33,743 bases of DNA from an uncultured Planctomycetia bacterium (lineage in GTDB: Bacteria; Omnitrophota; Gorgyraeia; Taenaricolales; CAZCCH01): assembly GCA_964497315.1 (NCBI GenBank), contig CAZCCH010000015.1, positions 1 to 33,743 of the forward strand. The letters are read 5' to 3'. The notes under the pieces are model-generated. The model saw only the letters and a list, made by a program, of their open reading frames with translations. It had not been told where the DNA came from and ran no database searches. Both the position numbers and the translations under genes were made by a program. This document shows positions 12,235 through 33,701 of the stretch, piece by piece. Every line of letters starts with the position of its first letter. The stretch's first letter is position 1.

Positions 12235-14562
12235 ATGCGAAACCTACAAAACAGACAAAATAAGACATTTATCTTAAAACCTCCTGGGACGTATAAAACT
12301 AAACGCAAGGAGCGTCTAATTAAACCTACCAAACGAAAACCATCCATAAAGAAAAAAATCACTGTAATATTTCTTCTTGTATCAATAGCATTATGCTCTG
12401 ATTTATTTGCAGAAAGGCCAAGCTATGCAAATCAGCGCCGACCTAAAATTGGATTAGTCTTAGGTGGCGGTGGTGCTAGGGGTGCTGCACATGTAGGGGT
12501 ATTAAGGGTTTTAGAAGAAAATAGAGTACCGATAGATTATGTTGTAGGTACTAGCATGGGTTCTATAGTAGGTGGTTTGTATGCATCGGGCGTTTCCGTA
12601 GAAGAGCTAGGGGAGATATTTGAATCTATTGACTGGAAAGGCCTCTTTACAGATAGGCCATCACGCAAAGATTTGCCTTTTCGTCATAAGCAAGACAGAA
12701 GAAAACTAATTGATTTTGAAATGGGTTTTAATAAAGGGAAATTGTCTATGCCTAAAGGTATTATTGCAGGTCAGAAGCTAGAATTTATTTTAAAGTCAAA
12801 AACCCTGCATGTTACAGGCGTTGAAGATTTTAATCAACTTTCAATTCCTTATAGGGCCGTAGCCGCTGATATTGAAACAGGCCAAAAGGTTGTTTTAGAT
12901 AGAGGCAATCTTGCTGAGGCGATAAGGGCCAGCATGTCAGTACCAGGTGTGTTTTCTCCTGTTGAGATAGATAATCATATATTAGTAGATGGCGGGATTG
13001 TGGATAATTTACCTGTGGATGTAGTGCGGGATATGGGTGCTGATATCGTTATCGCGGTTGATGTAGGTACAAAGCTCACTAAGCGCGAACAGCTAAAATC
13101 CGCCCTAGATATCTCCATGCAGGTAATAAGTATTTTAACCTTACAGAATGTTAATGAGCAAATTTCTAAGCTTACCAAAAAAGACTTATTAATTACACCC
13201 GAGCTAGGTGATACCTCTTCTTCGGATTTCCATAATGCTCCAGAGATTGTTAAGATTGGAGAGGAATCGGCACGTAATTTTACAAAACAACTAGAGAGAT
13301 ATTCTGTTTCAGATGAGGAGTATCAAATCTTTTTAACAAAACAAAGAAAAAAAGAATTAAAATCAATAAAGATTGATTTTATGGAGGTTACTTCTACGGG
13401 AGGGGCGGCACCTCAAAGGATACAGGCAAAGGTAAAGACAAAGTCAAATACAGAATTAGACCTTGATGTCCTTCAGGAGGATTTAACACGCATATATGCA
13501 ATGGGGGAGTTTGAAAAAGCAGATTTTAAAATTCTTGAAAAACAAGACAAGACAGGTCTTTTAATTAATACTACGGAAAAATCCTGGGGTCCTAACTATT
13601 TACGTTTTGGGCTAAATATCACAGACGATTTTGAAGGTGATAGTTATTATAATTTTCTTACGGAATATACCCGCACACAAGTTAACGCACTTGGTGCTGA
13701 ATGGAAGACTGAGGCCCAGATAGGCAGAACGCGCAAGGTGCTCACTCAATTTTATCAGCCGTTGGATTATGCAGACCGTTTCTTTATTGTACCTAGTATC
13801 GAATACAGCCGTAGCGTTTCAGATATATTTGAGGGTGATACCCGCACAGCGCAATACAAATTAGCCTACTTGCAAGGAGGTCTTGACGCTGGTATAAATA
13901 TAGGGACTTGCGCATTGGGTAAAATAGGAATTGTAAGGGGTAATACGGAGGCAGGTCCACTTGTAGGTGGTGAGAGCTTGCCGGAATTTAATATTGATAC
14001 AGCTGCATTAACAAGTGAGGTTATATTTGATCAAATAGATGATTCAAATTTTCCTAAATATGGAATAACATCTGATGCTTATCTTTTTCTATCGCAAAGA
14101 GGACTCGGCGCTGATGAAAGTTATAAAAAGTTACAATTCCAAGCAATTAAGGCAACTACCTTTGGTGGTAGACATACCTTCCTTGCAGATATAGAAGGTG
14201 GGGCAAACCTAGGAAAAGAAATACCATTTTATGATGAATTTACAATAGGTGGTTTTTTATCCTTGTCTGGCTATAGAAAAGGCCAATTAAGAGGGCAGTA
14301 TTTTGGTTTAGGGAGGCTTGTATATTATTATAAGGTTGCTAATGCGTCTTCCGGGTTGGCAGATGCTATTTATATTGGTGGTTCTGCTGAGAGTGGAAAT
14401 GTATGGGATAAGAGCAATGAGATTGAAATTGGCAATTTACTCCATGGTGGTAGTGTGTTTTTAGGTGTTGACAATATCTTTGGCCCATTGTATTTAGGGT
14501 ATGGCCTTGCTGAAGATAGTGAAGAGGGAAGGTTTTATCTATTTTTAGGTCAAACATTTTAA
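12235..14562 (+). CDS. Patatin-like phospholipase fused to a POTRA/Omp85-type beta-barrel (PlpD/type Vd autotransporter-like)
   Basis: GLVLGGGGARGAAHVGVL oxyanion loop, GTSMGS lipase serine and DGGIVDN catalytic Asp. The C-terminal ~300 aa are beta-strand-rich and end GQTF (aromatic terminus), as in surface-antigen/BamA-type barrels. Confidence 0.88.
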   Translation: MRNLQNRQNKTFILKPPGTYKTKRKERLIKPTKRKPSIKKKITVIFLLVSIALCSDLFAERPSYANQRRPKIGLVLGGGGARGAAHVGVLRVLEENRVPIDYVVGTSMGSIVGGLYASGVSVEELGEIFESIDWKGLFTDRPSRKDLPFRHKQDRRKLIDFEMGFNKGKLSMPKGIIAGQKLEFILKSKTLHVTGVEDFNQLSIPYRAVAADIETGQKVVLDRGNLAEAIRASMSVPGVFSPVEIDNHILVDGGIVDNLPVDVVRDMGADIVIAVDVGTKLTKREQLKSALDISMQVISILTLQNVNEQISKLTKKDLLITPELGDTSSSDFHNAPEIVKIGEESARNFTKQLERYSVSDEEYQIFLTKQRKKELKSIKIDFMEVTSTGGAAPQRIQAKVKTKSNTELDLDVLQEDLTRIYAMGEFEKADFKILEKQDKTGLLINTTEKSWGPNYLRFGLNITDDFEGDSYYNFLTEYTRTQVNALGAEWKTEAQIGRTRKVLTQFYQPLDYADRFFIVPSIEYSRSVSDIFEGDTRTAQYKLAYLQGGLDAGINIGTCALGKIGIVRGNTEAGPLVGGESLPEFNIDTAALTSEVIFDQIDDSNFPKYGITSDAYLFLSQRGLGADESYKKLQFQAIKATTFGGRHTFLADIEGGANLGKEIPFYDEFTIGGFLSLSGYRKGQLRGQYFGLGRLVYYYKVANASSGLADAIYIGGSAESGNVWDKSNEIEIGNLLHGGSVFLGVDNIFGPLYLGYGLAEDSEEGRFYLFLGQTF

Positions 14563-15489: not shown

Positions 15490-16407
15490 ATGGATGGAAG
15501 AATGAAACCACATATTTTTAGCGATAAGGAAAAAATAATTAAAATCCTTGAGGCTACTGGAGTTTCGCGTTCTGAACTTGCCAGGCGCCTTGGGGTGACC
15601 TATAAGACTGTATATAGATGGTTGAATGAAGGAAGGATGCCACATCCGGTCCAATCTAGGGAAATTGAGCAGTTATTTAAAGAGCATATAGATTTAAGAA
15701 ATACTGTTTTTATATTAGCCAAAAAGGTAAAAAACCCTATAGAAATATTAGAGAATAATGAAGGGATACGAGATAGGTTTTTGGTGGAGATGACCTACCA
15801 TTCTAATGCTATAGAAGGTAGTCGCATGAGCAAAAAAGAAACAGAAATGGCCATTAAAGGCAAAAAGATAAAAGATAAAGAGCTATATGAAATCTTCGAG
15901 GTTGTAAACCACAAAAATGCCATGGAGTTTGCATTAGATAACATTAAGCCAAATTTCAAAATTGATGAGAATTACATTTTGAAGCTACATAGTATAGTGA
16001 TGTATAATTTTAATAATAAGCTACCGGGTAAATATAGGACAGGACCTGTAAATTTAATAGGTGCAGATGTGAAGTTGGCTTCAGCACAAGATGTTCCTCT
16101 AAAAATGGGCAAGTTAATCAAGTCTATTAATGATTATAGAGATGATCCAATAGTTAAGATTGCCAAAGATCACTATGAATTTGAAGTGACACATCCTTTC
16201 TTTGATGGAAACGGTAGGGTTGGAAGGCTTATTATAATGACGCAACTTTTAAGTAAAGGGTTTGCTCCTGCTATTATACGGGTTGAAGATAGATATAAAT
16301 ACTATTTTGGACTGGGAAGGGCTGATTTCGGAGATTATAATAATATCACACAGGTAGTTTGCGATGGTATTATAAAGGGATATGAGCTATTAAGCGGTGA
16401 AAAATAA
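15490..16407 (+). CDS. fic: Fic-domain protein with N-terminal HTH (class II, auto-inhibited)
   Basis: Fic active-site motif HPFFDGNGRVGR (16192-16227). N-terminal inhibitory motif SNAIEG ([ST]xxxE[GN], 15802-15819). HTH segment VSRSELARRLGVTYKTVYRWL. Confidence 0.9.
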   Translation: MDGRMKPHIFSDKEKIIKILEATGVSRSELARRLGVTYKTVYRWLNEGRMPHPVQSREIEQLFKEHIDLRNTVFILAKKVKNPIEILENNEGIRDRFLVEMTYHSNAIEGSRMSKKETEMAIKGKKIKDKELYEIFEVVNHKNAMEFALDNIKPNFKIDENYILKLHSIVMYNFNNKLPGKYRTGPVNLIGADVKLASAQDVPLKMGKLIKSINDYRDDPIVKIAKDHYEFEVTHPFFDGNGRVGRLIIMTQLLSKGFAPAIIRVEDRYKYYFGLGRADFGDYNNITQVVCDGIIKGYELLSGEK

Positions 16408-19033: not shown

Positions 19034-22000
19034 ATGAAACTATCAAACTCTAATATCCACAAAATTATATCAATAGCACTCCTTGTGACGTTTATGATGT
19101 CACTGATAGGGCCGGAGCTTGCCTTAGCTTCTTCTGAAACCCTTAGACCCCATGTTACATCAAGAAAAAAACCTCTTCTAAAAGAGATGATTGCAAGGTT
19201 TACTGAGTTGCAACGTCCTTCAGTAGCATCTAGTGCAGAAGACTTTAGAAAAGATGAAGTGCGCATAGTTAGAGAAATGACTGAAGCTGGACAGCTTTAT
19301 TTTCGCCATGAACCAGAAAAACCAAGTGCAATATACTATATACCATTTTTGCGATATAGAGCAAGGCTTACACGTTGTAGGGGTGTAGCTGATTATACCA
19401 GTGCTGTGTTGAATGAGAAAGATAGAAGGTTTTCTACATTTAAGAGTGAGCGCGATGGTTTTGAGCGTTGGTTTAGAACTTCCCAGGAAGGTTTTCCATC
19501 GGCAGCATTGTACGACATTGATGTTCATCCTCAAGACTTAAATGATGCCATTGCAGCACTCATAGAGCAGAAGACCAAAGAAAAGGACAATACCATTACT
19601 GTCAGGGCCTTCGGTTCTGGTTTACCGGCCTTACTTTTACCTGGAGATCCAGCTACACTTCTAGCAGGAGATGTTGAAATAGAAACTATTTTAAAGTTTA
19701 TATTATCAGGTCTAAGGCATACCAGGAATAAAGCAAAATGGACTGTGGTAGTTTATGTATATGATAAAAAGACAGCTTATTTAGGGCAACTGGAAAAGGT
19801 TCTTTTGGAAAAATTAGAAAACTCACCAATGCCATTTAATATTGTATTAAATCTTAGATATGGTGATATAGCAGATAGAGAGCAATACCCATATATGTTT
19901 GAAGAACAAAGTGACATTAATGTTTGCCGTAATATCACTCAAAGTGGTGAGAGTTTTTCTAAAGGAGATAGTATTTTTCATGGGCAATTAGTTAATAGCC
20001 TGTCACCTCATGGGTTTATTATACATGGTGCGCGTAGAAGGGGAGATAGGATTATATTAGCTTCTGATAGAGATGCTCTTAAGAGGTTAAGTGGCGATTT
20101 TCTGGATAGTAATTCTTCAGAAGATGAAGCTACTAGTAGGTTTTCAGAAATAGGTGCAATAGGTCACTTGGAAGAGGAAAGAAAAACAGAAGATCTTATT
20201 GCTGCATTGACTGCCTTTGATATTCCTTTTATACCCACAGAAAGCAATTGTGAATTTACAAGAATTTCCGCAGGTCATTCAAACCTTACGTATAATATTA
20301 AGCATAATGGCAAAAATAGGCATATTCTTCAACAAATGAGCACAATTTATGATGCAAATGCCCTTAATGCTAATCTGAACTTATTAGAACAGGCTCAAGA
20401 TGCATGGCTTAAGGAAGGCGCAGAAGATGAATACTGGCAGCCCGTTCATTATGTTAATGTCAAGGGCGCTTCTGATAAGCTATATTGTGATACAGCAGGC
20501 AGAATTTGGCGTTTAATGGATTATATTCCAGGAGAGGTTTTTGGAAAATTTAGTGATGTTCCTCAGAGTGATCGTAGAGAGATTGCCCAATCTCTTGGTA
20601 GGGCAATTGTTGTTTTTCGAAGAATGCTAGAATCAGTTCCTTTAGAAAGCTGGGAAAAGGATATGTCAGGTTTTCATGATCCACAATACTTTTATGCTTA
20701 TCTTCATTCTATTTGGCTGGGTCAGGAGGTGCCATTGAATTTTACTGATGGATCATCACATATGGTAGTTAGAGATCCTAGCGTAACAAGTGAATATTCA
20801 GAAAGAATAAATCTCTTAAAGAGAAAGATTGAAGATAGGAGACATATCTTAACTAGCTTAGATGAACTTGGCCAGGTTGTTTCACATGGAGATTTAAAGA
20901 TTGATAACCTATTCTTCCGAAAACACAAAGGCCGCTGGAAGTGCATATCTATTGCTGATTTAGATACGATACAACCTAGAAACGTCCTTACTGATCTTGG
21001 TGATGCACTGCGTTCTGCCGGCAACCCAGCTGGGTCAGAACCGAGAGCAATAGATGATGTAACAATAGATGTTGATGTGGTCACAAATATAATAAATGGA
21101 TACCTAGAAGCCACAGCAGGGTTTTATGATCACACAGAGGCAGAGCGCTTGAGACCACATACTATTGAGGCATTTAAACTTCTTCTGTATGGGCAGTCTA
21201 TGTGGTATTTAGCAGATGCACTTACTAATAGCGCATACTTTAATATAGGTGCAGAGAGAGCGCTATATAAGGCAGAGGTGCAGATGAGGGCATTGGAGCA
21301 GTTGGAAGAGTTAAGTCTAATTAAAGATGGCCCATTTGCTGATTTTGTCAAACCTGATGCCAGTAGGTTTGGGGAAAGGACTGCCGAAGAACGAATTGCT
21401 GCGCTGCGGGAAGATTTGGTGTATTATGAAGCAGCCGCGACAGCGTCTTCAGCACCTGATCAGGATTTTCCAGATGATATTTGTGATGTAGGTACAGGCG
21501 AAGCCCACCTGATGAATGAAGTCCACATTGCAGCTGATTCTGATGAGCGCCCTGAAAGAATAATTAGCGCATACACCGCTGGTCCTTGCCGGGCATATGT
21601 TATTAAAGGTAGAGTAAATGATGAGACAAGATTGTTTCTACGACATAGAGCTGCGGTAGAGGGCATACTTGATGATTTAAGAGAAGATATAGCCGCTTTA
21701 GAGAGAGCTGGCATGCAAGATAGAGAGGTTGTTTTTAAGCTTGATTTAAAGACGCAAGCCGGCCTGGAGGTCGTGAGGCTTGGATGGGTTTCTCCAGAAG
21801 AACTGAGGGAAAAAATTAAGGAAATATGCGGGCCTCGAATCTATACAGAAGAAGGCATTTTCCCACATGAAATTACTGATGTAATTGCAACCCAGGAAGG
21901 AGTAGTTATTTATTGCCCATATAATTCTAATGCCTCCAAGATTATCTTATGGCCAGAAAGCAAGGAAGGTGTATTCATGGATGCTGTATTGCCCAATGCA

Positions 22001-25000
22001 GAAGTCGTAGAGGATGAGGCATTTTCTGCTCAAAGCAGGTTTGGGGAAATGGCTGTTGATGCACTCAAGGGGAACATAAAGAGAGCGGTGTCTGTATTTA
22101 GGGATACGGCTATTGTAAAAAGTCCACAGTTAATAGAGGAAGACAAAAACAGAGTTTGGGTTATTAACAATATCTTTGAAGATAGATTCCTTCTAGATAG
22201 CGTAGTTTTAAAAGATCCAGACCCTAAACATGAAGAATATTTTTATGCTTCAAGAGAAGGGCTTGATATGTATGAGGCCCATTTTGAGAGTGACTATCCT
22301 CGCGTTGAAATAGCCCAAACAGTGATAATCGATAATCCGAAGGAAAATGATCTAGTTGGTACAAAAAGGGCATCACAGTGCCTTCCACTACTATTTGCTA
22401 ATATTCCTGATAACAAGCCCAACATGATAGGTTCTTCTCATATATTCACTTCGACAGACCCGACATTTTCATCCTTGGGTGATAAACTTCTTGACGCTGG
22501 ATATGAAAACCTAATTGTTGTAATTCCTCGTCCGAAAAAGCTTGGACGAACCGTAGCTCCATTCGCATTAAGAACATCTCAGTATGAGGAGGTGATAGCT
22601 AATATGCGAGCTAAAGGAATTACAGTATACGAGGTACCTTATCAAGACGTTTCAATAAGTGCTGCCGCAACAGCAGATGGTTTTGCGATATTCATAGAAA
22701 AATTCGTTGACCCCACAACAAAAAGGACAAAAGACATTGAAGAATTTGTTCTTCTTGAACCTATAAAAACATGGCAAGAATTCTCAAGTAGGTTTGGGGA
22801 GGTTGCTATTATTGAAGGTAATGCTGCACCGGAAGTTCTTCCGGCAACAGAGAATAGGATAGAGCTTGCGTTGAATATGCCTTCTGAAAGGGCTACGCAA
22901 ACAGGAACTGCCTGTATTAGACCCACGAAGGAAAGGGGATTTGCTGATGTATGGAGCCGCAGGGATTTTATGAAAGCCGGTGCTTTTGCTACGACTGTAG
23001 CAACTGTTTTTGGCAGTTTACCGAAGACCGGAGTTGCTGCTACGCCAGATGCTATTAAAGTCAAGGCAAAGGAGCTTTGTACACAATATTTAAAAGATGT
23101 TTGCGATGAGAAGATAACACTTGGACTAGATAATAGTTTAGGAACCTGGCGTGAAGTTCTCAAGGACAGGGAAGAATACGCCGACTTACTCAAGCCCGAT
23201 AATAATTATGCATTGCTTACTGCGTTTGTTTTTGACACGTTGTTTCCTGCGCTAGAGGAAGCTGCAAGCCGAACACGTGTCAGTGCCCATAACGCATCTA
23301 TAAATATAGAATTAGCCTTAATGAATCTCTTGGATAAAAAAGATGAAAAGGTCGAGGCATTTTTACGTCATACCTTAGCCAGGACCACTGACTCCTTGGT
23401 TAGAACAAGACGAATCCAGAATAAGGTAGAACGCGATAGACGAATTGGTATTGCACTGCAAAGACTGGAGAGCGCCTCTGCTTACATAGGGCCAGAGATT
23501 TCAGATAAGCTGGTTAGTATAGTCAAATTACACGATAGTTTAACGCAGCTTGGTCTGGAGCAAAAGGAAGAGATAGAAAGAGTATCCATGGAGATCAATA
23601 GTTTGATAATAGACCTAAATAAAATTCTAATTCCGCTTGGCTTATACTGCAGGGTTTCAATGAATGTAAGTCTGGGTGATGACAAAGAGCATATCTACAT
23701 CAAGTCGTTTAAAATAGAAAAAACCCGTTTATATAAAGCAACTGACGGCAAAGTTGTTAAGGTCTATATTGTAAAAGGGATAGATAACATAGCTATAACA
23801 AATGTCTTTGGTTTTCGCAGACTGGAAACAGACTATGCTGTAGTAATTTTAGATAATATAGAATCCAAAGCGAGAGACATAGAGGAAGTCCTAAAACATG
23901 GAAAATCTGATGCCCATAAGGATATAGAGAGCAGGCTGACTGCAATTGGGAAAGCAAGATTAGCAGACCTAAGGGTTTTACTTGTTGAGCTGGCAAAAAA
24001 GGAATTTAGTGGTTTGACCAGACAGCAAATAATGAATAAGATTCAAGTTTTAATCGAGACCCACGAGATAAGACATGTATTAGATAGGGGTAACTTTACA
24101 AGGGAAGAGCGCGATAAAAAAGAAGGTTCGGCTTTTATGGCAGAATTGATTCTGGCAGAATTGATTACAGGTACAGCTACATATTATAGTGTATTAAAAT
24201 GGGCTGAACATGTATTCAGAGGAGGAGAGCATGATTATGCCGCAAGGATGGTATTTGAAGGATTGATGAAAAAAGCAAAAGAGAAGGGATATGTAAATGC
24301 ATCCGTAAACCTGAAACATGTTAGCTTTAGAGAGTTGATAAAGACAGTAGAGACATTGCGCAGGCTAAGTAAGGGTGAAATTGCAGGTCTGGCAAGAGAG
24401 TCCTATAAAGAAATATTTGGTTTTGAATTTATAGATGCCTTGCCTGTCATTCAGCCTCCTGGTCGCTTTACCGAGCCAAAAAAGACAGCAACGTGTGAAA
24501 TAGCAATTAGAGGGAGAATGCATATTATACCCTCAGACTTGCTTGCCTATGAGCTATCAAACCTTTATAACGCAGTTAGGGGTAAGATTAATTTTACATT
24601 TAAGAAGGAGCTAGGAGACGATAGAGTTCTTGAAATGACTAATCCCGGGACAATAACTAATATTCTTAGCTTTGGACTGGGGCCTGGGGATATTCTAGAA
24701 GTTAGCGTGGAAGAGGACCTACCACGAGATGTGCAGGAAGAGGCATTGAATTACATTGAGGCTTTGTTTAATAGCTACCATATACTACAAGCAACTCAAT
24801 TGGCGCAGATGCATGGTGCTGAGCAGGCACGGATGGCTTTAGGTGGAACACCCTATGTTGATCTTGCCTCAGCAGAGCAGTATGGATTGGAGATAGTGCG
24901 TTCAGATCTATCTAGCAGTCTTTGGCCTGCATTAAGAAGACTAATAAGCATGTTGAAGCGTGATGTTGAGATTTCTCGTTTTACAGAAAGGGGAGATGAA

Positions 25001-28000
25001 ATACCCACTTCACCAGTCGATCCTGCAAGGTTTAGGGAAGATAGTAGGCTCATAGATGAGCGGGCAAGGGATATGCTGAAGGTGCTGTGTGAAAGCAGGC
25101 GCAGCCAGCCAACCAACACCAAAGCACGAAGGGCATTGGTGCGTTTAGAACACCTCGTGGATTCCAGATGGTCGTATGGTGAACAGTGGAGCGAAGTTAT
25201 CGATACATTGCGCGAAGCCGGACTCATCACCTCAGATACGGCAGGGTGGCTCGGCAGTTTGGATGATGAAGTTGTGCGCAGAACCATGTTCTATGTGACT
25301 GTGCGTTATCTTGACATAATGGAGCATGAAGTTTTATTTCACGGAACCTCACTGCATAACATAGACAGTATCAAGAAACATGGTCTGCACCCTGAGCATG
25401 TACCCCCGGGCAAAGAAGAACTTCAAAGGGTATTTGGCATAGTAGGCAAGGCGCTCGGAGAAGATCGCGCAATGGAGATTACAGAAGGTCAATTAAGTTT
25501 TGAATATGATCTAAGCCTTGCTAATTTTTACTTTGCTATCCTAGGCCCTGAGATGTTGCGAAGAGCGATAGGGGATTTACAAGAAATAAAGAAGCTAGGT
25601 TTTCCTGAAATTGATGAAGCAGATAGAAAATTTATAGAATATTTTCTTGAGCACTGGAATGATGGGTATCTTTCTTCAAACCAGCCATGCCTTCTGGCCG
25701 TACCGTTTAAGACAATCGTACAGTTTATGGATTTAGAGCAAGACGCTTACCAAAGGGATCGGACTAGGTTTCTGAAAAGGCCGCACGAATTTTTTAATGA
25801 TGTTATATTGCTTTACCTGTTTCCTTGGGAAACCTGGGTGGGGGAGGGTACATTGTTACCATTCCGCCTTCCAGCGCTTGATAAAATTGAAACAGCAATG
25901 CACGAACAAATGGCCGTTACCTTCCATGACGTGCATACATATTCCAGACCTAACTATGATCTGGGTGATATTTATGTTGTTACTGGTAAAAGAGATGCCC
26001 TCAATCTAGTACCGCTAAAACAAGTAGAAATAGATGAGCTTGAGAGAACCGCTGTTGTCCTCAGAGAAGTAAATCAAGAATGTCAAGAAAAACAAGGAGA
26101 AGTTTTCAATCGTAGCTTTTCTTCCCAGGAAGCACTTGATTTTTGCGCCGAGCTTCACAGCATTGCCCGGGAAGCCATTGCCAAGTCAAATTATGAGAGA
26201 ACCGATGGGTTATCAGGTGCTCGCTTTTCTGAGCAAGTTGAGTTTGTGGAGGATAAACTGGTCAGGGAACCAATAGAGGATGAAAATCTAACCTTGGACC
26301 AAGTGGAACAAATTGAAAGAGACAGACAGCAGATTGAAGCAGAATTGACTCGGCACTACGGGGATGCCGAGGCGTTTTTTGGAGAAGGACCACGTGATGG
26401 GATAAGAATTATTGCAACCACTGATGAAGAAGGCGAATTGATAGCAACTAGCCCCATTTATTATATAGCCCAAGGGGTAGCAATAAATGAGACCAGGCAA
26501 GAGGTATTGCTGAATTATCTTAATACGACTAGAGCGGGGATAGCAGAAGAAGGTTCGCGATATACGGTTTTTCATGAGATGGGTCACTGGGCTAATGAAA
26601 GTAGAGGTATTTCTAGTATAGTGCGGGAATTGATAGGTCCACAGATGGAGGAGATAGCGGCTTCGCATATTGAGAGGCATCCGGATGAATTGGGATTTTA
26701 CCTTGACTTGTATAATTCAAAGCTTAGAGAAGGTGAGATTCCTGTGGATAGGCTGCAAGAGTTACTGAAAGGCTGTTTAGTCGTCAAAGGCCTTACGCTT
26801 TTCGAGGATTGCTTGGTTGACAGGCAGTTATTAGAGTTAGCTCGCGCAGGAGATCTCGAAGGACTTGACAGAGAATTAATTGGTACAAGGAAAATACTTT
26901 TAGGCGATAAGCTAAAACAGCCAGATCTTTGTTGTCTCGCCATACTTAGATACAGGCTGCTTGAGGAAGTATATTCTCCAGATGATAGGACCAAGGTAGA
27001 TATTTTCCCGGATGACTTCAATCCAGAAAACTTTGGAATAAACGCAGAAATGATGAAGCAGATAGATGATGATGCGCGAGCGATGGCTGTGGCAATCAGG
27101 GGTGCGGAGCGCATGATAGCTAAATACGCGCCAGGAAAAATTGCGCCTCCAGGAGATTTGAGGGATTTAAAAGGCAGGCTGAAGTCATCTGTTGGAGATT
27201 TTATGCGACCATTGAAGAAATATCTTACCATTCCTGCGCTAATTTCTTATTTCAAGCTTAATCATACCCGAGTAGATCCCACGCGTTTCACCGAGGGTAC
27301 GGGTTCACTTAGTGCGGAGGGAAATTTGCCCGGCGATCAAACACTAGGTACTAGTGATTATTCCCCTGCCCGGTTTGTGGAAGGGGATGCCATTGCGCAA
27401 TGGCCTATTTCTATTGACGAGGCATTATTAAGAAGTGGTGAGTCTGCACGAGCTATTGCTGTAGAACCTGACTATGTTCCACCTTATGGAGTTTTAGCTC
27501 CTGGAGCTATTAATATTTCTGATTATCTCGCACTTGGCATGCTTGCTGCTTCAGGGATATCAAGTGAGCCGCAAGGGCAGGATGGGAAATTGAGCCGCAG
27601 GACGTTTCTTAAAGCTGCAGCCGCAGGAGCAGGCGTGGCAATTGGCAGCGCAGTAGTTCACAAGGTTCTAAAAAGCGATGATATAACACCGCGCATTTTA
27701 GATGATGCAGCCGATGAAAGATTAAGAAATGCTGGTAAGGCGATAAGTGCTAAATTCATGCATGTCTATGAAGAATACAAGGACAAAAATCCCGCCGAAA
27801 CAAAGCTGGTACGTGCACTTTTTAGAAAAATAAATGACCACAAGACAGAAAAGGAGATCATGCACCATCCTGAGCTTAAACACAAAAAAGATAACGTAGA
27901 CGTACTAATGGGTATAGGCGAACCTGCCGATGATAATGGTGAATCCCCTATCTATCTTTCATATAGCATACTGGGCCAACCCGATGAGATATTATGGGCA

Positions 28001-29113
28001 AAAATGGTCCACGAAGGATGGCATGCATATAATGAAATCCTCAAGAAGGCCAGTGGTGCAGCGGAGGCTATACGGCATGCACAAGATGAGATGCTTGCTA
28101 ATATAACCGAATGGGTTGAAAATCCCCAAAATCGCGATTCCATTAAAAGATATTTTAGCATTTGGGTAAATGAAGAGGAAATTGCCAATAGCTTGGAAAG
28201 AGCAGTTTTTGTTAGAGAAATAGGCGGTTCAGACAATGAGGCTATCGAAAGATTTGTGCAAAAAGCTATACAGCAAAATCCCAGGGCTCAGGCAGATACG
28301 GGCTCAGGCAGCAAAGAGAGAAAAGAGGCCTATGCGAGACATCTGAGAAGGTATGTAAGAGATCGAATACTGAGATATTATCGAATTCCCTCGTTACATG
28401 GTAGATTGCGATATATACTTAGTAGCTATTATTCACATGTAAAACCTGCTGTGTACATCGGGTTATTTCTAACAGAATTTTATGAAGGACGAGCTGATCA
28501 TCGAACTAGGACAACGAGCCCAGGCAGAAAGTTCTTCATAGGGCCAGATAGAATCGAACTAAATATAAGATCTCATGGAGCTAGTGGGCAGCAAAGGCTT
28601 ATTCTTACGCCTAAAGAGAATTTTTTAGAATGGGCATCGAACTGGGCAAATTCTGAGGAATATAAAAGATTGTTTGTGAAACCAGAAGGCCTTACGAAAA
28701 TGCGCGGTTCCCGCTTTTCCGAAGCCTCCCAAGCCATATTTGGCAAAATTGAGCAACCCACAGGCATAATAATGAAAGCAGATTTTGCTACTAAAATCTT
28801 TCCAGTTTTGCCAGAGTTAGCAGTCCACTTTGGCCAAAAGGTAACAATTGCTGTAGTGGGCCCTTCACAGCTAAAGGAGAGAATAACCAAAGTAAATGCA
28901 GTCTTGCCACATGATGTATCTATTATACTATGCGATACCATTGATGAAGCAGCCAAGGAGTTGTCTGAGAGAGGTATAGGCCTTATCAGATTACTCACCA
29001 GAAAAACAATAAAAGACCTTCCTTTGGTTCGTGAAACCCTCCTTATTACAGAGAAGACCCTACAGCTAATAGATGAGTTGAGATCCCGCAAAGAAATAGC
29101 TGGTGGGGCATAA
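19034..29113 (+). CDS. Giant (3,359-aa) multi-module secreted/membrane protein of unknown function
   Basis: Uninterrupted 10,080-nt ORF. N-terminal Sec-type signal (aa 1-32, ALA|SS). Internal kinase-like, HPr-like and HExxH segments, plus two internal twin-arginine signal-like segments. See findings. Confidence 0.9.
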   Translation: MKLSNSNIHKIISIALLVTFMMSLIGPELALASSETLRPHVTSRKKPLLKEMIARFTELQRPSVASSAEDFRKDEVRIVREMTEAGQLYFRHEPEKPSAIYYIPFLRYRARLTRCRGVADYTSAVLNEKDRRFSTFKSERDGFERWFRTSQEGFPSAALYDIDVHPQDLNDAIAALIEQKTKEKDNTITVRAFGSGLPALLLPGDPATLLAGDVEIETILKFILSGLRHTRNKAKWTVVVYVYDKKTAYLGQLEKVLLEKLENSPMPFNIVLNLRYGDIADREQYPYMFEEQSDINVCRNITQSGESFSKGDSIFHGQLVNSLSPHGFIIHGARRRGDRIILASDRDALKRLSGDFLDSNSSEDEATSRFSEIGAIGHLEEERKTEDLIAALTAFDIPFIPTESNCEFTRISAGHSNLTYNIKHNGKNRHILQQMSTIYDANALNANLNLLEQAQDAWLKEGAEDEYWQPVHYVNVKGASDKLYCDTAGRIWRLMDYIPGEVFGKFSDVPQSDRREIAQSLGRAIVVFRRMLESVPLESWEKDMSGFHDPQYFYAYLHSIWLGQEVPLNFTDGSSHMVVRDPSVTSEYSERINLLKRKIEDRRHILTSLDELGQVVSHGDLKIDNLFFRKHKGRWKCISIADLDTIQPRNVLTDLGDALRSAGNPAGSEPRAIDDVTIDVDVVTNIINGYLEATAGFYDHTEAERLRPHTIEAFKLLLYGQSMWYLADALTNSAYFNIGAERALYKAEVQMRALEQLEELSLIKDGPFADFVKPDASRFGERTAEERIAALREDLVYYEAAATASSAPDQDFPDDICDVGTGEAHLMNEVHIAADSDERPERIISAYTAGPCRAYVIKGRVNDETRLFLRHRAAVEGILDDLREDIAALERAGMQDREVVFKLDLKTQAGLEVVRLGWVSPEELREKIKEICGPRIYTEEGIFPHEITDVIATQEGVVIYCPYNSNASKIILWPESKEGVFMDAVLPNAEVVEDEAFSAQSRFGEMAVDALKGNIKRAVSVFRDTAIVKSPQLIEEDKNRVWVINNIFEDRFLLDSVVLKDPDPKHEEYFYASREGLDMYEAHFESDYPRVEIAQTVIIDNPKENDLVGTKRASQCLPLLFANIPDNKPNMIGSSHIFTSTDPTFSSLGDKLLDAGYENLIVVIPRPKKLGRTVAPFALRTSQYEEVIANMRAKGITVYEVPYQDVSISAAATADGFAIFIEKFVDPTTKRTKDIEEFVLLEPIKTWQEFSSRFGEVAIIEGNAAPEVLPATENRIELALNMPSERATQTGTACIRPTKERGFADVWSRRDFMKAGAFATTVATVFGSLPKTGVAATPDAIKVKAKELCTQYLKDVCDEKITLGLDNSLGTWREVLKDREEYADLLKPDNNYALLTAFVFDTLFPALEEAASRTRVSAHNASINIELALMNLLDKKDEKVEAFLRHTLARTTDSLVRTRRIQNKVERDRRIGIALQRLESASAYIGPEISDKLVSIVKLHDSLTQLGLEQKEEIERVSMEINSLIIDLNKILIPLGLYCRVSMNVSLGDDKEHIYIKSFKIEKTRLYKATDGKVVKVYIVKGIDNIAITNVFGFRRLETDYAVVILDNIESKARDIEEVLKHGKSDAHKDIESRLTAIGKARLADLRVLLVELAKKEFSGLTRQQIMNKIQVLIETHEIRHVLDRGNFTREERDKKEGSAFMAELILAELITGTATYYSVLKWAEHVFRGGEHDYAARMVFEGLMKKAKEKGYVNASVNLKHVSFRELIKTVETLRRLSKGEIAGLARESYKEIFGFEFIDALPVIQPPGRFTEPKKTATCEIAIRGRMHIIPSDLLAYELSNLYNAVRGKINFTFKKELGDDRVLEMTNPGTITNILSFGLGPGDILEVSVEEDLPRDVQEEALNYIEALFNSYHILQATQLAQMHGAEQARMALGGTPYVDLASAEQYGLEIVRSDLSSSLWPALRRLISMLKRDVEISRFTERGDEIPTSPVDPARFREDSRLIDERARDMLKVLCESRRSQPTNTKARRALVRLEHLVDSRWSYGEQWSEVIDTLREAGLITSDTAGWLGSLDDEVVRRTMFYVTVRYLDIMEHEVLFHGTSLHNIDSIKKHGLHPEHVPPGKEELQRVFGIVGKALGEDRAMEITEGQLSFEYDLSLANFYFAILGPEMLRRAIGDLQEIKKLGFPEIDEADRKFIEYFLEHWNDGYLSSNQPCLLAVPFKTIVQFMDLEQDAYQRDRTRFLKRPHEFFNDVILLYLFPWETWVGEGTLLPFRLPALDKIETAMHEQMAVTFHDVHTYSRPNYDLGDIYVVTGKRDALNLVPLKQVEIDELERTAVVLREVNQECQEKQGEVFNRSFSSQEALDFCAELHSIAREAIAKSNYERTDGLSGARFSEQVEFVEDKLVREPIEDENLTLDQVEQIERDRQQIEAELTRHYGDAEAFFGEGPRDGIRIIATTDEEGELIATSPIYYIAQGVAINETRQEVLLNYLNTTRAGIAEEGSRYTVFHEMGHWANESRGISSIVRELIGPQMEEIAASHIERHPDELGFYLDLYNSKLREGEIPVDRLQELLKGCLVVKGLTLFEDCLVDRQLLELARAGDLEGLDRELIGTRKILLGDKLKQPDLCCLAILRYRLLEEVYSPDDRTKVDIFPDDFNPENFGINAEMMKQIDDDARAMAVAIRGAERMIAKYAPGKIAPPGDLRDLKGRLKSSVGDFMRPLKKYLTIPALISYFKLNHTRVDPTRFTEGTGSLSAEGNLPGDQTLGTSDYSPARFVEGDAIAQWPISIDEALLRSGESARAIAVEPDYVPPYGVLAPGAINISDYLALGMLAASGISSEPQGQDGKLSRRTFLKAAAAGAGVAIGSAVVHKVLKSDDITPRILDDAADERLRNAGKAISAKFMHVYEEYKDKNPAETKLVRALFRKINDHKTEKEIMHHPELKHKKDNVDVLMGIGEPADDNGESPIYLSYSILGQPDEILWAKMVHEGWHAYNEILKKASGAAEAIRHAQDEMLANITEWVENPQNRDSIKRYFSIWVNEEEIANSLERAVFVREIGGSDNEAIERFVQKAIQQNPRAQADTGSGSKERKEAYARHLRRYVRDRILRYYRIPSLHGRLRYILSSYYSHVKPAVYIGLFLTEFYEGRADHRTRTTSPGRKFFIGPDRIELNIRSHGASGQQRLILTPKENFLEWASNWANSEEYKRLFVKPEGLTKMRGSRFSEASQAIFGKIEQPTGIIMKADFATKIFPVLPELAVHFGQKVTIAVVGPSQLKERITKVNAVLPHDVSIILCDTIDEAAKELSERGIGLIRLLTRKTIKDLPLVRETLLITEKTLQLIDELRSRKEIAGGA

Positions 29114-31955: not shown

Positions 31956-33701
31956 TTACCAGCTGCTAGTAAATGTCAAGAATGTATCTATGCTATGCTG
32001 GGTGTCAGTTTGCTCATCTTTTGCTGAAAGAGACATGTATTTAGTACCATATTCATCAAGGCGATACCTGCATAAGCCTTCTATGTCGTATCCCCCTGTT
32101 TGGTTATTTAATGCAAGCCTAGAAGATAGCTCTAAAGAATCATCTAGGTTAAAACCAAGCCCTATTTCTTGTTCGCAGACCTGCCAAATGCCTTGATTCT
32201 GCCAGTTTAGATTAGCTAGCCAAAGATTAAATGATTTTTCCCCTATATTATACCTTAGGTCTGTACCATAGCGCATAAGGCTGCGCCCCAAGTCATTTTC
32301 TAGGAATAACTCTGCATTCAACCCCAATATATCAAAATTTGTAAATCCCTTTATATGATTGAAACTAAAAGAATCATTCATGTGTAGTTGACTACCCAAT
32401 CTTAACCATGGCATAACTTCAATAGAGGGTGATACCTCAAAGCCATTATTTACATCTCTAGATAGGTATAAATCCAATTTCCTATCCCATATTTGTCTTT
32501 TGATTTCTGCTTCTATCTTGCTTGCAAAACGCAGTTCCATCATCCTATCAAGAGAGCTTTTGCCTGAGCCAACTAATTTAATCTTATAATCATTCCTGTC
32601 AAGTTCAACAGGTATATATGGATAGAAGTATTGGCTTAGACGCCAACCATAGGTAGGATTATCTATAGTAACGCCGAATTTTCCTCCAGGAATAAATACC
32701 CCATTATCTTCGAGCTCTTCTGTGTAAAGAGCGTTATTAGAAAGGCTTTTGTTTATTCCAATGTCTATATCCTCATCAAGATAATATAAATACGCCAATC
32801 CATCAAAGGAAATGAAATTCCCAGATATACTAAAAAGATCCCTGTGGTACTTTCCATAGATACGATGTGCAGAAGTGCTGGCCCACAAGTGAGTTTGGCT
32901 GTATGAATCTAGGAAAAGAGGCATATCCAATGCCAACTTACCATATTCCTGGCCTATAACTCCATCCTGGTATTCTCCTTGATAGCTTGCCTCAGGTGTG
33001 AAGTAGACCCCAGGGCCTTCCATTCCCTCTTCTCCTCCACTTCCCTCTATGGAATCGCCTAATTCTTGCACCAGTTGCCTTTCAGCAGCTTGCATATAGG
33101 AATCTACCCCTTCGTACCTTAAGGCATCAAAGAATTCCCACAGCCTCCCCTGAGGAGTGTCTGCATCAATTATGTCAATACAGTCATAAGATGAAAGGTT
33201 TATCTCTTTTAGATCAATAGCAAGCGAATGTATAACATCATCCCATTCAGGATTTCCAGTAGTTAGATATTTTTCCAATTCGCGCGGGTTTATCCTTACT
33301 TCTTTTAAGCTAGCATGAATGGTCTGATTTCGAACATCTTTACCTATACGCCTTGTCTCATAATTACTGAATACCTCTTCTAAGGTATCTGCAATTTCAT
33401 CTTCTGGGTATGTTTCTACCTCTATTATATAAACATCGTTATACAAACCACCTACATTTGTATATTTGTTAAAATCTACTCTCGCGCCAGTAACATCAAG
33501 CAACACGTCATTAAACCTGAATCTACCATCTCTCAAGGTATCTTCGCCTTTTGCCCAGGCTACGTTAGTTTCTATTGCACCATCTTCAGATATACTATGC
33601 CATTGCCCTCCATCTTCTTCAAGGTTCAATTCAAATATATTACCATTATAATCGGCCCTAAGTAGTTTTTCCAGCTCATCGTATTCAGCAGGTAATGTCA
33701 A
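31956..33701 (-). CDS. Hypothetical acidic protein with beta-barrel-like C-terminal half
   Basis: 581-aa ORF with a TTG start immediately after an in-frame stop. The N-terminal half is acidic. The C-terminal ~200 aa show an alternating beta-strand pattern ending FLTFTSSW. No signal peptide is visible. Confidence 0.55.
   Translation of the reverse strand: MTLPAEYDELEKLLRADYNGNIFELNLEEDGGQWHSISEDGAIETNVAWAKGEDTLRDGRFRFNDVLLDVTGARVDFNKYTNVGGLYNDVYIIEVETYPEDEIADTLEEVFSNYETRRIGKDVRNQTIHASLKEVRINPRELEKYLTTGNPEWDDVIHSLAIDLKEINLSSYDCIDIIDADTPQGRLWEFFDALRYEGVDSYMQAAERQLVQELGDSIEGSGGEEGMEGPGVYFTPEASYQGEYQDGVIGQEYGKLALDMPLFLDSYSQTHLWASTSAHRIYGKYHRDLFSISGNFISFDGLAYLYYLDEDIDIGINKSLSNNALYTEELEDNGVFIPGGKFGVTIDNPTYGWRLSQYFYPYIPVELDRNDYKIKLVGSGKSSLDRMMELRFASKIEAEIKRQIWDRKLDLYLSRDVNNGFEVSPSIEVMPWLRLGSQLHMNDSFSFNHIKGFTNFDILGLNAELFLENDLGRSLMRYGTDLRYNIGEKSFNLWLANLNWQNQGIWQVCEQEIGLGFNLDDSLELSSRLALNNQTGGYDIEGLCRYRLDEYGTKYMSLSAKDEQTDTQHSIDTFLTFTSSW

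Follow-up and report, generated by a model that had tools for sequence, protein, structure and literature searches.

Export signals are generally assumed to stand at the start of a gene product, and annotation pipelines discard internal calls. Single open reading frames (ORFs) that encode unrelated modules and are subsequently processed are typified by multi-effector polyproteins, such as the MARTX toxins and the polyproteins of viruses, and members of the phylum Omnitrophota are thought to be predatory or parasitic. For this phylum, a recent survey treated signal-peptide calls inside long proteins as artefacts and suppressed them (bioRxiv 10.64898/2026.06.07.730766). Large Omnitrophota proteins have been proposed to undergo post-translational cleavage, at points that are unknown (bioRxiv 10.1101/2023.11.21.568195). 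The accepted precedent for internal twin-arginine translocation (Tat) signals is found in membrane proteins with dual dependence on the general secretory (Sec) and Tat pathways, as typified by the Streptomyces Rieske protein Sco2149 (PMC3471235, PMC5449189), and a Rieske-like hand-over from Sec to Tat is likewise documented (PMC3471235, PMC5449189, PMC13186574). Here we analysed a stretch of 33.7 kb with 38% G+C (contig CAZCCH010000015.1, positions 1 to 33,743; hereafter the window), in which a giant ORF (19034..29113, 3359 aa and a stop codon), belonging to a mosaic family characterized by a signal peptide (SP) and RFxE motifs, carries two Tat-type signals deep within its length. Judged from its sequence, the second of these appears to be a genuine, selectively maintained targeting peptide that belongs to a module and not to a gene. 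Coordinates are those of the window, and the giant ORF with all its elements lies on the + strand.

The second internal Tat-type signal (27593..27664) reads S2854-RRTFLK, followed by the hydrophobic region (h-region) AAAAGAGVAIGSAVV and then by HK; the S2854-R-R-T-F-L-K2860 motif occupies nt 27593-27613, and the stretch AAAAGAGVAIGSAVVHK runs to nt 27664. Translation of the ORF confirmed in this respect a preliminary description of the DNA, which had placed an S-R-R-x-F-L-K motif and an Ala/Gly-rich h-region at these positions. As the twin arginine (RR) is found at aa 2855 of 3359, 2,853 residues precede the motif in the ORF, and Met2836 (nt 27539-27541) lies 19 residues ahead of RR. The first internal signal (22955..23041) reads S1308-RRDFMK-AGAFATTVATVFGSL-PKTGVAA|T, where direct reading of the sequence discloses a signal-peptidase-like site (V-A-A|T) downstream. 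When scored against the curated models PF10518 (TAT_signal, gathering score 22.7) and TIGR01409 (cut-off 16.7), the second signal obtained 23.9 bits (whole ORF) or 23.4 bits (excised segment) with the former and 24.1-25.1 bits with the latter, so that the normal-looking Tat signal that had been proposed passes both cut-offs; the first obtained 20.0 bits with TIGR01409 (above the cut-off) and 15.2 bits with PF10518 (below it). On the basis of composition, 0.0046 occurrences of RRxF[LM]K are expected per protein (0.0005 with a preceding S/T) versus the 2 observed, and a search in all six frames of 8 loci, comprising the window, five loci of its lineage and two belonging to related Omnitrophota metagenome-assembled genomes (MAGs), confined the motif to the giant ORF and its homologue. 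The earlier argument that the same oddity occurring twice speaks against coincidence is thus upheld, with the first copy passing TIGR01409 only.

The h-region of the second signal has a Kyte-Doolittle hydropathy of 1.85, as compared to 2.65 for the N-terminal Sec signal peptide. On the biological hydrophobicity scale of Hessa et al. 2005, the N-terminal signal peptide (sum -2.6) and the two post-RR segments (+2.3 and +2.5, the second signal being the one at +2.3) rank as the three 15-mers of greatest hydrophobicity in the protein; the post-RR stretches are therefore far less hydrophobic than the Sec signal, as is the case for Tat h-regions. Beyond these three segments, the hydrophobicity scan found no further transmembrane-type candidate in the giant protein. 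Both RR stretches carry positive charges on their N-terminal side, and in the second signal the h-region is followed by basic residues (H-K-V-L-K); the only cleavage-like site of this signal, G-S-A|V, is situated inside the hydrophobic stretch and is kept in the homologue. Going by these features, the second segment would qualify as a Tat-type signal in every sequence respect except position: as encoded it is not N-terminal, and its RR would become N-proximal, at residue 72, only through a cut at an RFVE motif located upstream.

The part of the protein that bears this signal (module C, 27383..28711, aa 2784-3226) shares 61-62% identity over 443 aa with the only homologue recovered (L001/P0015), with one indel in each sequence of the alignment. 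Such a comparison had been named in the preliminary description as a check, and it came out in favour of the signal: the homologue, an intact 1126-aa ORF, keeps the motif at aa 533 as NRRSFLK, and there too it is internal. R-R, F, L and K are identical in both versions of module C (S alternates with N at position -1, and T with S at position x), while 9/15 positions of the h-region differ, the substitutes being in every case small or hydrophobic uncharged residues (A, G, S, V or I), and the basic residue after the h-region is retained. A conserved motif beside an h-region that is kept in character and not in sequence is the pattern expected of a working signal peptide, seen here in two lineages. 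The intact homologue P0015 (1126 aa) was found on contigs from three samples, and P0001 is its interrupted counterpart, in which, in two samples, an in-frame TAG (L001 2293-2295, also in L002) breaks module C at exactly the codon that reads AAG (Lys) in the window, owing either to a nonsense variant at strain level or to an error of sequencing.

The conserved block does not begin at the signal. It includes a 70-aa pre-RR extension (27383..27592; WPISI-E-LL..GE..RA..DYV-PYGV..) that encompasses Met2836 and is ~50% identical to the homologue, comparable with the 61% across module C, and RR is consequently found ~71 residues into the module. The block starts in both proteins at the junction motif A-RFVE (aa 2780-2783; 27371..27382), the true start of module C, which precedes Met2836 by 56 residues and RR by 75. 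Since the residues ahead of RR are conserved to this extent, Met2836 is not a module boundary, and the head of the module, previously assigned to this methionine, has to be moved to RFVE. A G/S/T/P-rich linker joins RFVE to another junction motif, T-RFTE (aa 2751-2754; 27284..27295); the presence of an RFxE-containing stretch at aa 2751-2783 had been recorded beforehand and proved to be the more important clue. At the opposite end, S-RFSE (aa 3227-3230; 28712..28723) closes module C and opens the C-terminal module: the homology with the L001 protein stops 3 residues beyond it, and the homology with three further proteins (P0003, P0004 and P0005) begins there. What had been regarded as one last, HEGWH-containing module of ~520 aa does contain HEGWH, and consists of two units, namely module C and the C-terminal module (aa 3231-3359).

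In a model of module C computed with AlphaFold2 (AF2) from a 2-sequence alignment (predicted local distance difference test, pLDDT, 35.8; low confidence, only the secondary structure being used), HEGWH (nt 28010-28024) is found in a strand-strand-helix context. Module C is probably a zinc metalloprotease, plausibly of the zincin type, as suggested by the motif and this modelled context; Pfam and NCBIfam provided no domain match in it beyond the HEGWH motif. No stand-alone homologue of module C was recovered by a full HMMER search of 1.84 billion representative proteins, and none of module B (which is opened by the junction motif S-RFGE, aa 1253-1256, 22790..22801) was detected by a word-indexed search of 5.8 billion proteins. 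BLASTP found no similarity between modules B and C beyond the signal itself, and the idea that they are duplicates, with the two signals reflecting a single event, was rejected on this ground; in the absence of detectable homology, two unrelated modules bear the same kind of signal.

A HMMER pass of aa 2784-3359 over the same 1.84 billion proteins returned five proteins only: the giant ORF, P0001 (which has module C) and P0003, P0004 and P0005 (matched in the last ~135 residues only). Two additional family genes adjoin these on the same contigs, bringing the total to at least seven proteins, all from one Omnitrophota lineage. The seven have a common architecture, in which a Sec-type signal peptide is followed by an A-x-A-like site, by (E)TLRP or LRTP and then by RFxE, and in which variable modules beyond the first RFxE are divided by further [A/S]-R-F-[T/S/A/G]-E motifs. 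The first [A/S]RFxE stands 20-40 residues after the signal peptide in 6/7 proteins (the L001 protein has HFAE instead), and modules measure roughly 100-560 aa, with much longer motif-free stretches in two family proteins. In the giant ORF, the signal peptide (aa 1-32; 19034..19129) comprises the h-region IISIALLVTFMMSLI and then A-L-A|SS, is the most hydrophobic segment of the protein and is followed by ETLRP; the first junction motif, A-RFTE (aa 55-58; 19196..19207), lies 23 residues past the predicted signal-peptidase site, and the protein ends with the conserved C-terminal module (28724..29110), which has a Rossmann-like alpha/beta fold.

The junction motifs are heavily concentrated in this family. 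The giant ORF (3,359 residues) holds 12 RFxE sites, whereas its shuffled versions average 0.87 and reach 4 at most, and the seven family proteins (10,469 residues) hold 35, of which 27 conform to the strict motif [AS]RF[TSAG]E. RFxE was found 0 times in the other 26 ORFs of the window (6,501 residues), 3 times in the non-family ORFs of the family loci (10,829 residues) and 9 times in the ORFs of other Omnitrophota-like loci (26,521 residues), the strict motif being absent from all of these (~44,000 aa). Moreover, the BLASTP blocks shared between paralogues start or stop, in most cases, 0-10 residues from an RFxE motif: the block between L085_P4 (739-1006) and L088_prev (445-714) begins at motif offset 0 in both, the module C block stops 3 residues beyond RFSE/RFAE in both proteins, and the homology of the C-terminal module starts -1 to +9 residues from the motif in 5/6 pairings (in the sixth it runs 15-25 residues upstream). 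The same module is also found beside different neighbours in different family proteins. These block edges, together with the differing neighbours, indicate that RFxE marks the joints between modules. The giant ORF is thereby split into about 11-12 units, of which only two bear a Tat-type signal, and it looks like a polyprotein-like mosaic of independently shuffled modules; the tripartite scheme put forward at the outset (one Sec-headed and two Tat-headed parts, A, B and C) gives way to about 12 units as delimited by the [AS]RFxE motifs.

Two other explanations of the motif were rejected. A DNA-level repeat or recombination site is incompatible with the differing codons of individual sites (e.g. 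cgt ttc acc gag versus cgg ttt gtg gaa), from which it follows that RFxE is conserved at the protein level. The Fic inhibitory motif [ST]xxxE[GN] does not match either, for Ala occupies position -1 in 16/37 sites, and G or N is rare at position +4. An alignment search with the N-terminal prefix gave no significant match, the query being too short for the 5.8-billion-sequence database, and an alignment of the C-terminal module had no match in the GTDB genomes or the JGI metagenome contigs. As these scans were empty, the family is known only from a handful of metagenome contigs; no description of an RFxE junction family was found in literature searches that did not query the motif itself.

The charges of the two RR signals assign both to an N-in/C-out orientation, and, as no transmembrane segment separates them, both cannot act in an uncut chain; if both are functional, a break in the chain between them is required, and this interval contains six RFxE motifs. 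Because topology and module-boundary evidence agree, we favour processing, and we tentatively propose (granting the proposal somewhat less than an even chance) that the RFxE junctions are processing sites and that the Tat signal works only after release of its module. A protease would cut the chain at or near the RFxE junctions, whereupon the released module C, and likewise module B, would gain an N-proximal twin-arginine signal; the Tat translocase would then recognize this signal and carry the folded module across the cytoplasmic membrane. Cleavage at RFxE, dependence on Tat and the processing compartment (the cytoplasm of the producer or the target cell to which the protein is exported) are what we infer. 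Cutting in the cytoplasm fits the ATP-dependent and regulatory modules of the family, while export first and cutting afterwards keeps the signal peptide meaningful.

Several points weigh against this proposal. Cytoplasmic cutting would strip off the Sec signal peptide after ~22 mature residues, while periplasmic cutting would leave the Tat signals outside the cytoplasm of the producer, where they could be read only in another cell. A cut at RFVE leaves an n-region of 70 residues, which is long for a Tat signal, and the h-region of module C has no A-x-A site after it, for which reason the module may stay anchored in the membrane by its uncleaved signal. Neither the window nor the fetched loci contain Tat genes (tatA, tatC), and a literature search for Omnitrophota TatC or polyproteins found nothing relevant. 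As regards a cofactor-binding fold that would justify export by Tat, HExxH is the sole hint in module C (modelled at the low pLDDT given above), and the conservation of its signal spans two lineages, with one homologue lineage only. Furthermore, cleavage at RFxE is a prediction from sequence, and the AF2 model of the C-terminal module, which is confident, has RFxE at the start of the first helix; the motif could be a structural or binding motif rather than a cleavage site.

An unlikely competing account is that the signals are relics of gene capture, modules B and C having been derived from genes of ordinary Tat-exported proteins and the signals being carried along as functionless passengers. 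Module shuffling has visibly shaped the family, other modules look like common cytoplasmic proteins (APH/N-acetylhexosamine-kinase-like, sigma-54 AAA+ and receiver), and the signal is near the start of the module, as a captured N-terminus would be. Yet the motif and the character of the h-region were kept although the two versions of module C differ at ~39% of residues, the searches that would have retrieved free-standing relatives (1.84 billion proteins with HMMER for module C, 5.8 billion by word index for module B) recovered none, and the 70 conserved pre-RR residues start exactly at the junction motif, whereas a captured pre-protein is expected to start at its own Met. It is rather improbable, in our view, that the RR-flanked stretches serve as membrane anchors of a large, uncut envelope protein, the third hydrophobic segment perhaps being inserted by Tat once Sec has dealt with the first two, as in the actinobacterial Rieske proteins. 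Long Omnitrophota proteins are commonly predicted to combine a signal peptide with transmembrane helices (bioRxiv 10.64898/2026.06.07.730766), the second RR comes after an even number (two) of hydrophobic segments, and it has the low hydrophobicity and the C-terminal positive charges of Tat-dependent transmembrane domains (eLife 2017, PMC5449189). However, such an arrangement would have the first RR and its positive charges facing the periplasm, in contradiction to its strong Tat consensus, and would render the ATP-dependent kinase-like module A periplasmic; both post-RR stretches sum positive on the hydrophobicity scale and would be poor Sec transmembrane segments, the preceding ‘transmembrane domains’ are >1,500 residues away, and the junction-motif architecture would be left unexplained.

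The least probable of the readings, to which we attach very little weight, is that separate genes are involved, either through an internal translation start at Met2836 or because three ordinary genes were joined into the long ORF by an assembly or fusion artefact. Met2836, at 19 residues before RR, would indeed give a Tat signal of normal length, and its equivalent is present in the homologue; however, neither a Shine-Dalgarno sequence nor an above-background promoter was found ahead of it in the window or in the homologue, and conservation continues undiminished upstream of the Met as far as RFVE, on which grounds we rejected the internal start (the missing Shine-Dalgarno sequence being weak evidence, because many genes of the window lack one as well). 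As for an artefact, a second assembly (L003, ENA), 99.9% identical over the same region, has a 10-N scaffold gap at window positions 24131-24133, where the window reads ‘CT’; the spot is flanked by a tandem GGCAGAATTGATT repeat, and whether the two sides of the giant ORF are joined in frame depends on this spot. Against this stand the 0 stop codons across 10 kb of the giant ORF, the record of an identical 3359-aa protein (P0006) from NCBI, JGI and ENA on 3 contigs, and the internal RR of the homologue, whose 1126-aa ORF is intact in three or four independent samples. The gap lies 3.4 kb upstream of the second Tat-type signal, the stretch of which is uninterrupted in every version, and thus leaves this signal unaffected. 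A different and highly unlikely scenario is that the giant ORF is exported into a victim cell and cut there at the RFxE junctions, its Tat signals being read by the Tat machinery of the victim; metalloprotease-like modules would then be sent to the victim's envelope from inside, while the kinase, the ADP-ribosyltransferase-like module and the sigma-54-activator and receiver modules of the paralogues would act in its cytoplasm. Processing at the junctions, followed by Tat recognition of the released modules, is the reading that we favour.

With respect to the remaining modules, the giant ORF contains an APH-family kinase-like module (20255-21049, aa 408-672), whose nearest PDB structures are N-acetylhexosamine 1-kinases (E 4.5e-9); as encoded, this ATP-dependent enzyme comes after a Sec signal peptide. 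An ADP-ribosyltransferase-like module is hinted at by weak similarity to the PARP catalytic domain / RNA 2'-phosphotransferase (LFHGTS...HGL; 25295-25396, aa 2088-2121). Three HExxH motifs occur in three modules (HEIRH at 24062-24076, HEMGH at 26573-26587, and the HEGWH of module C at 28010-28024) and are the only protease-like features of the ORF; the HEMGH region has a weak match to Tox-MPTase3, a metallopeptidase toxin domain (E 0.17). Pfam and NCBIfam found no cysteine protease domain (CPD) and no RTX repeats in the giant ORF, and PADLOC returned no defence-system match for it. Among the paralogues, P0003 (L084 10001-12874) and P0005 (L088 10001-14137) have either a pair of sigma-54 AAA+ activator units or a receiver domain combined with HEAT repeats; these modules are typical cytoplasmic regulators, yet they are placed behind a Sec-type signal peptide and accompanied by the shared C-terminal module.

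The neighbours of the giant ORF belong to the ordinary chromosomal complement of a diderm bacterium (EamA, inositol monophosphatase, endonuclease III, M48 peptidase, SPFH and Sir2, together with a patatin-Omp85 fusion, Fic, acetolactate decarboxylase and Dus), on account of which a phage origin of the window was rejected. The Dus protein has its nearest relatives in Candidatus Omnitrophota MAGs (66% and 55% identity). The patatin-like phospholipase fused to an Omp85-type beta-barrel spans 775 aa (12235-14562), and a 581-aa ORF (31956-33701, - strand) has no Pfam match and keeps its position beside a cold-shock gene in L003. A Fic-domain gene is found within a few kb of an RFxE-family gene at 3 loci (window 15490-16407; L001 3717-4778; L085 1924-3087), a proximity that could be conserved synteny or a functional link.

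The occurrence of two Tat signals at the heads of shuffled modules, within a family that has a recurring junction motif, suggests that in some bacteria a single ORF encodes several proteins with different addresses, which are separated later. [AS]RFxE provides a concrete candidate for the cleavage points of large Omnitrophota proteins, and the succession of a signal peptide, (E)TLRP and repeated [AS]RF[TSAG]E can be used as a mining rule. Export into a victim cell, if true, would constitute a prokaryote-on-prokaryote counterpart of effectors with host organelle-targeting signals.

In comparison to the canonical N-terminal Tat signal peptides described by TIGR01409 and PF10518, the second signal has the same S-R-R-x-F-L-K motif, the same weak, Ala/Gly-rich h-region and the same basic residues; it differs in its position, with 2,853 residues of the ORF and 70 residues of its own module ahead of it, and in having no A-x-A after it. 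With the Rieske protein Sco2149 it shares a mid-polypeptide RR that is followed by a segment of low hydrophobicity with C-terminal positive charges. In the Rieske type, however, the signal follows 2 or 4 close Sec-inserted transmembrane domains and precedes one cofactor domain, whereas here it follows >1,000 aa of soluble modules, and two signals occur without an intervening transmembrane segment; instead of an even number of Sec-inserted transmembrane domains immediately before it, the second signal has ahead of it only the cleavable-looking signal peptide and the first RR stretch, 1,500-2,800 residues away, and the first RR stretch is charged for N-in, where a Rieske-type topology would need N-out. 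The MARTX-like polyproteins, the processed multi-module type to which the giant ORF comes closest as a system, resemble it in having modules that vary between paralogues and are parted by short recurring junction sequences. They differ from it in that MARTX toxins possess the cysteine protease domain and RTX repeats that it lacks, and in that its modules include Tat-type signals and typical cytoplasmic regulators, its cleavage being a prediction. The giant proteins previously reported from Omnitrophota (archaeovorin and dockerin types; bioRxiv 10.1101/2023.11.21.568195; Seymour 2023, PMC10066038) come from the same phylum and are likewise large, poorly annotated ORFs with a signal peptide, for which a division into several products by cleavage has been suggested. 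The 3359-aa ORF is ten times smaller than these, a class characterized by more than 10,000-30,000 aa and many transmembrane helices, and is devoid of SecA_DEAD, C39/S8 peptidase, dockerin and discoidin domains and of a run of transmembrane helices, having three hydrophobic segments in total; the family to which it belongs is defined instead by its RFxE junctions, its shared prefix and its C-terminal module.

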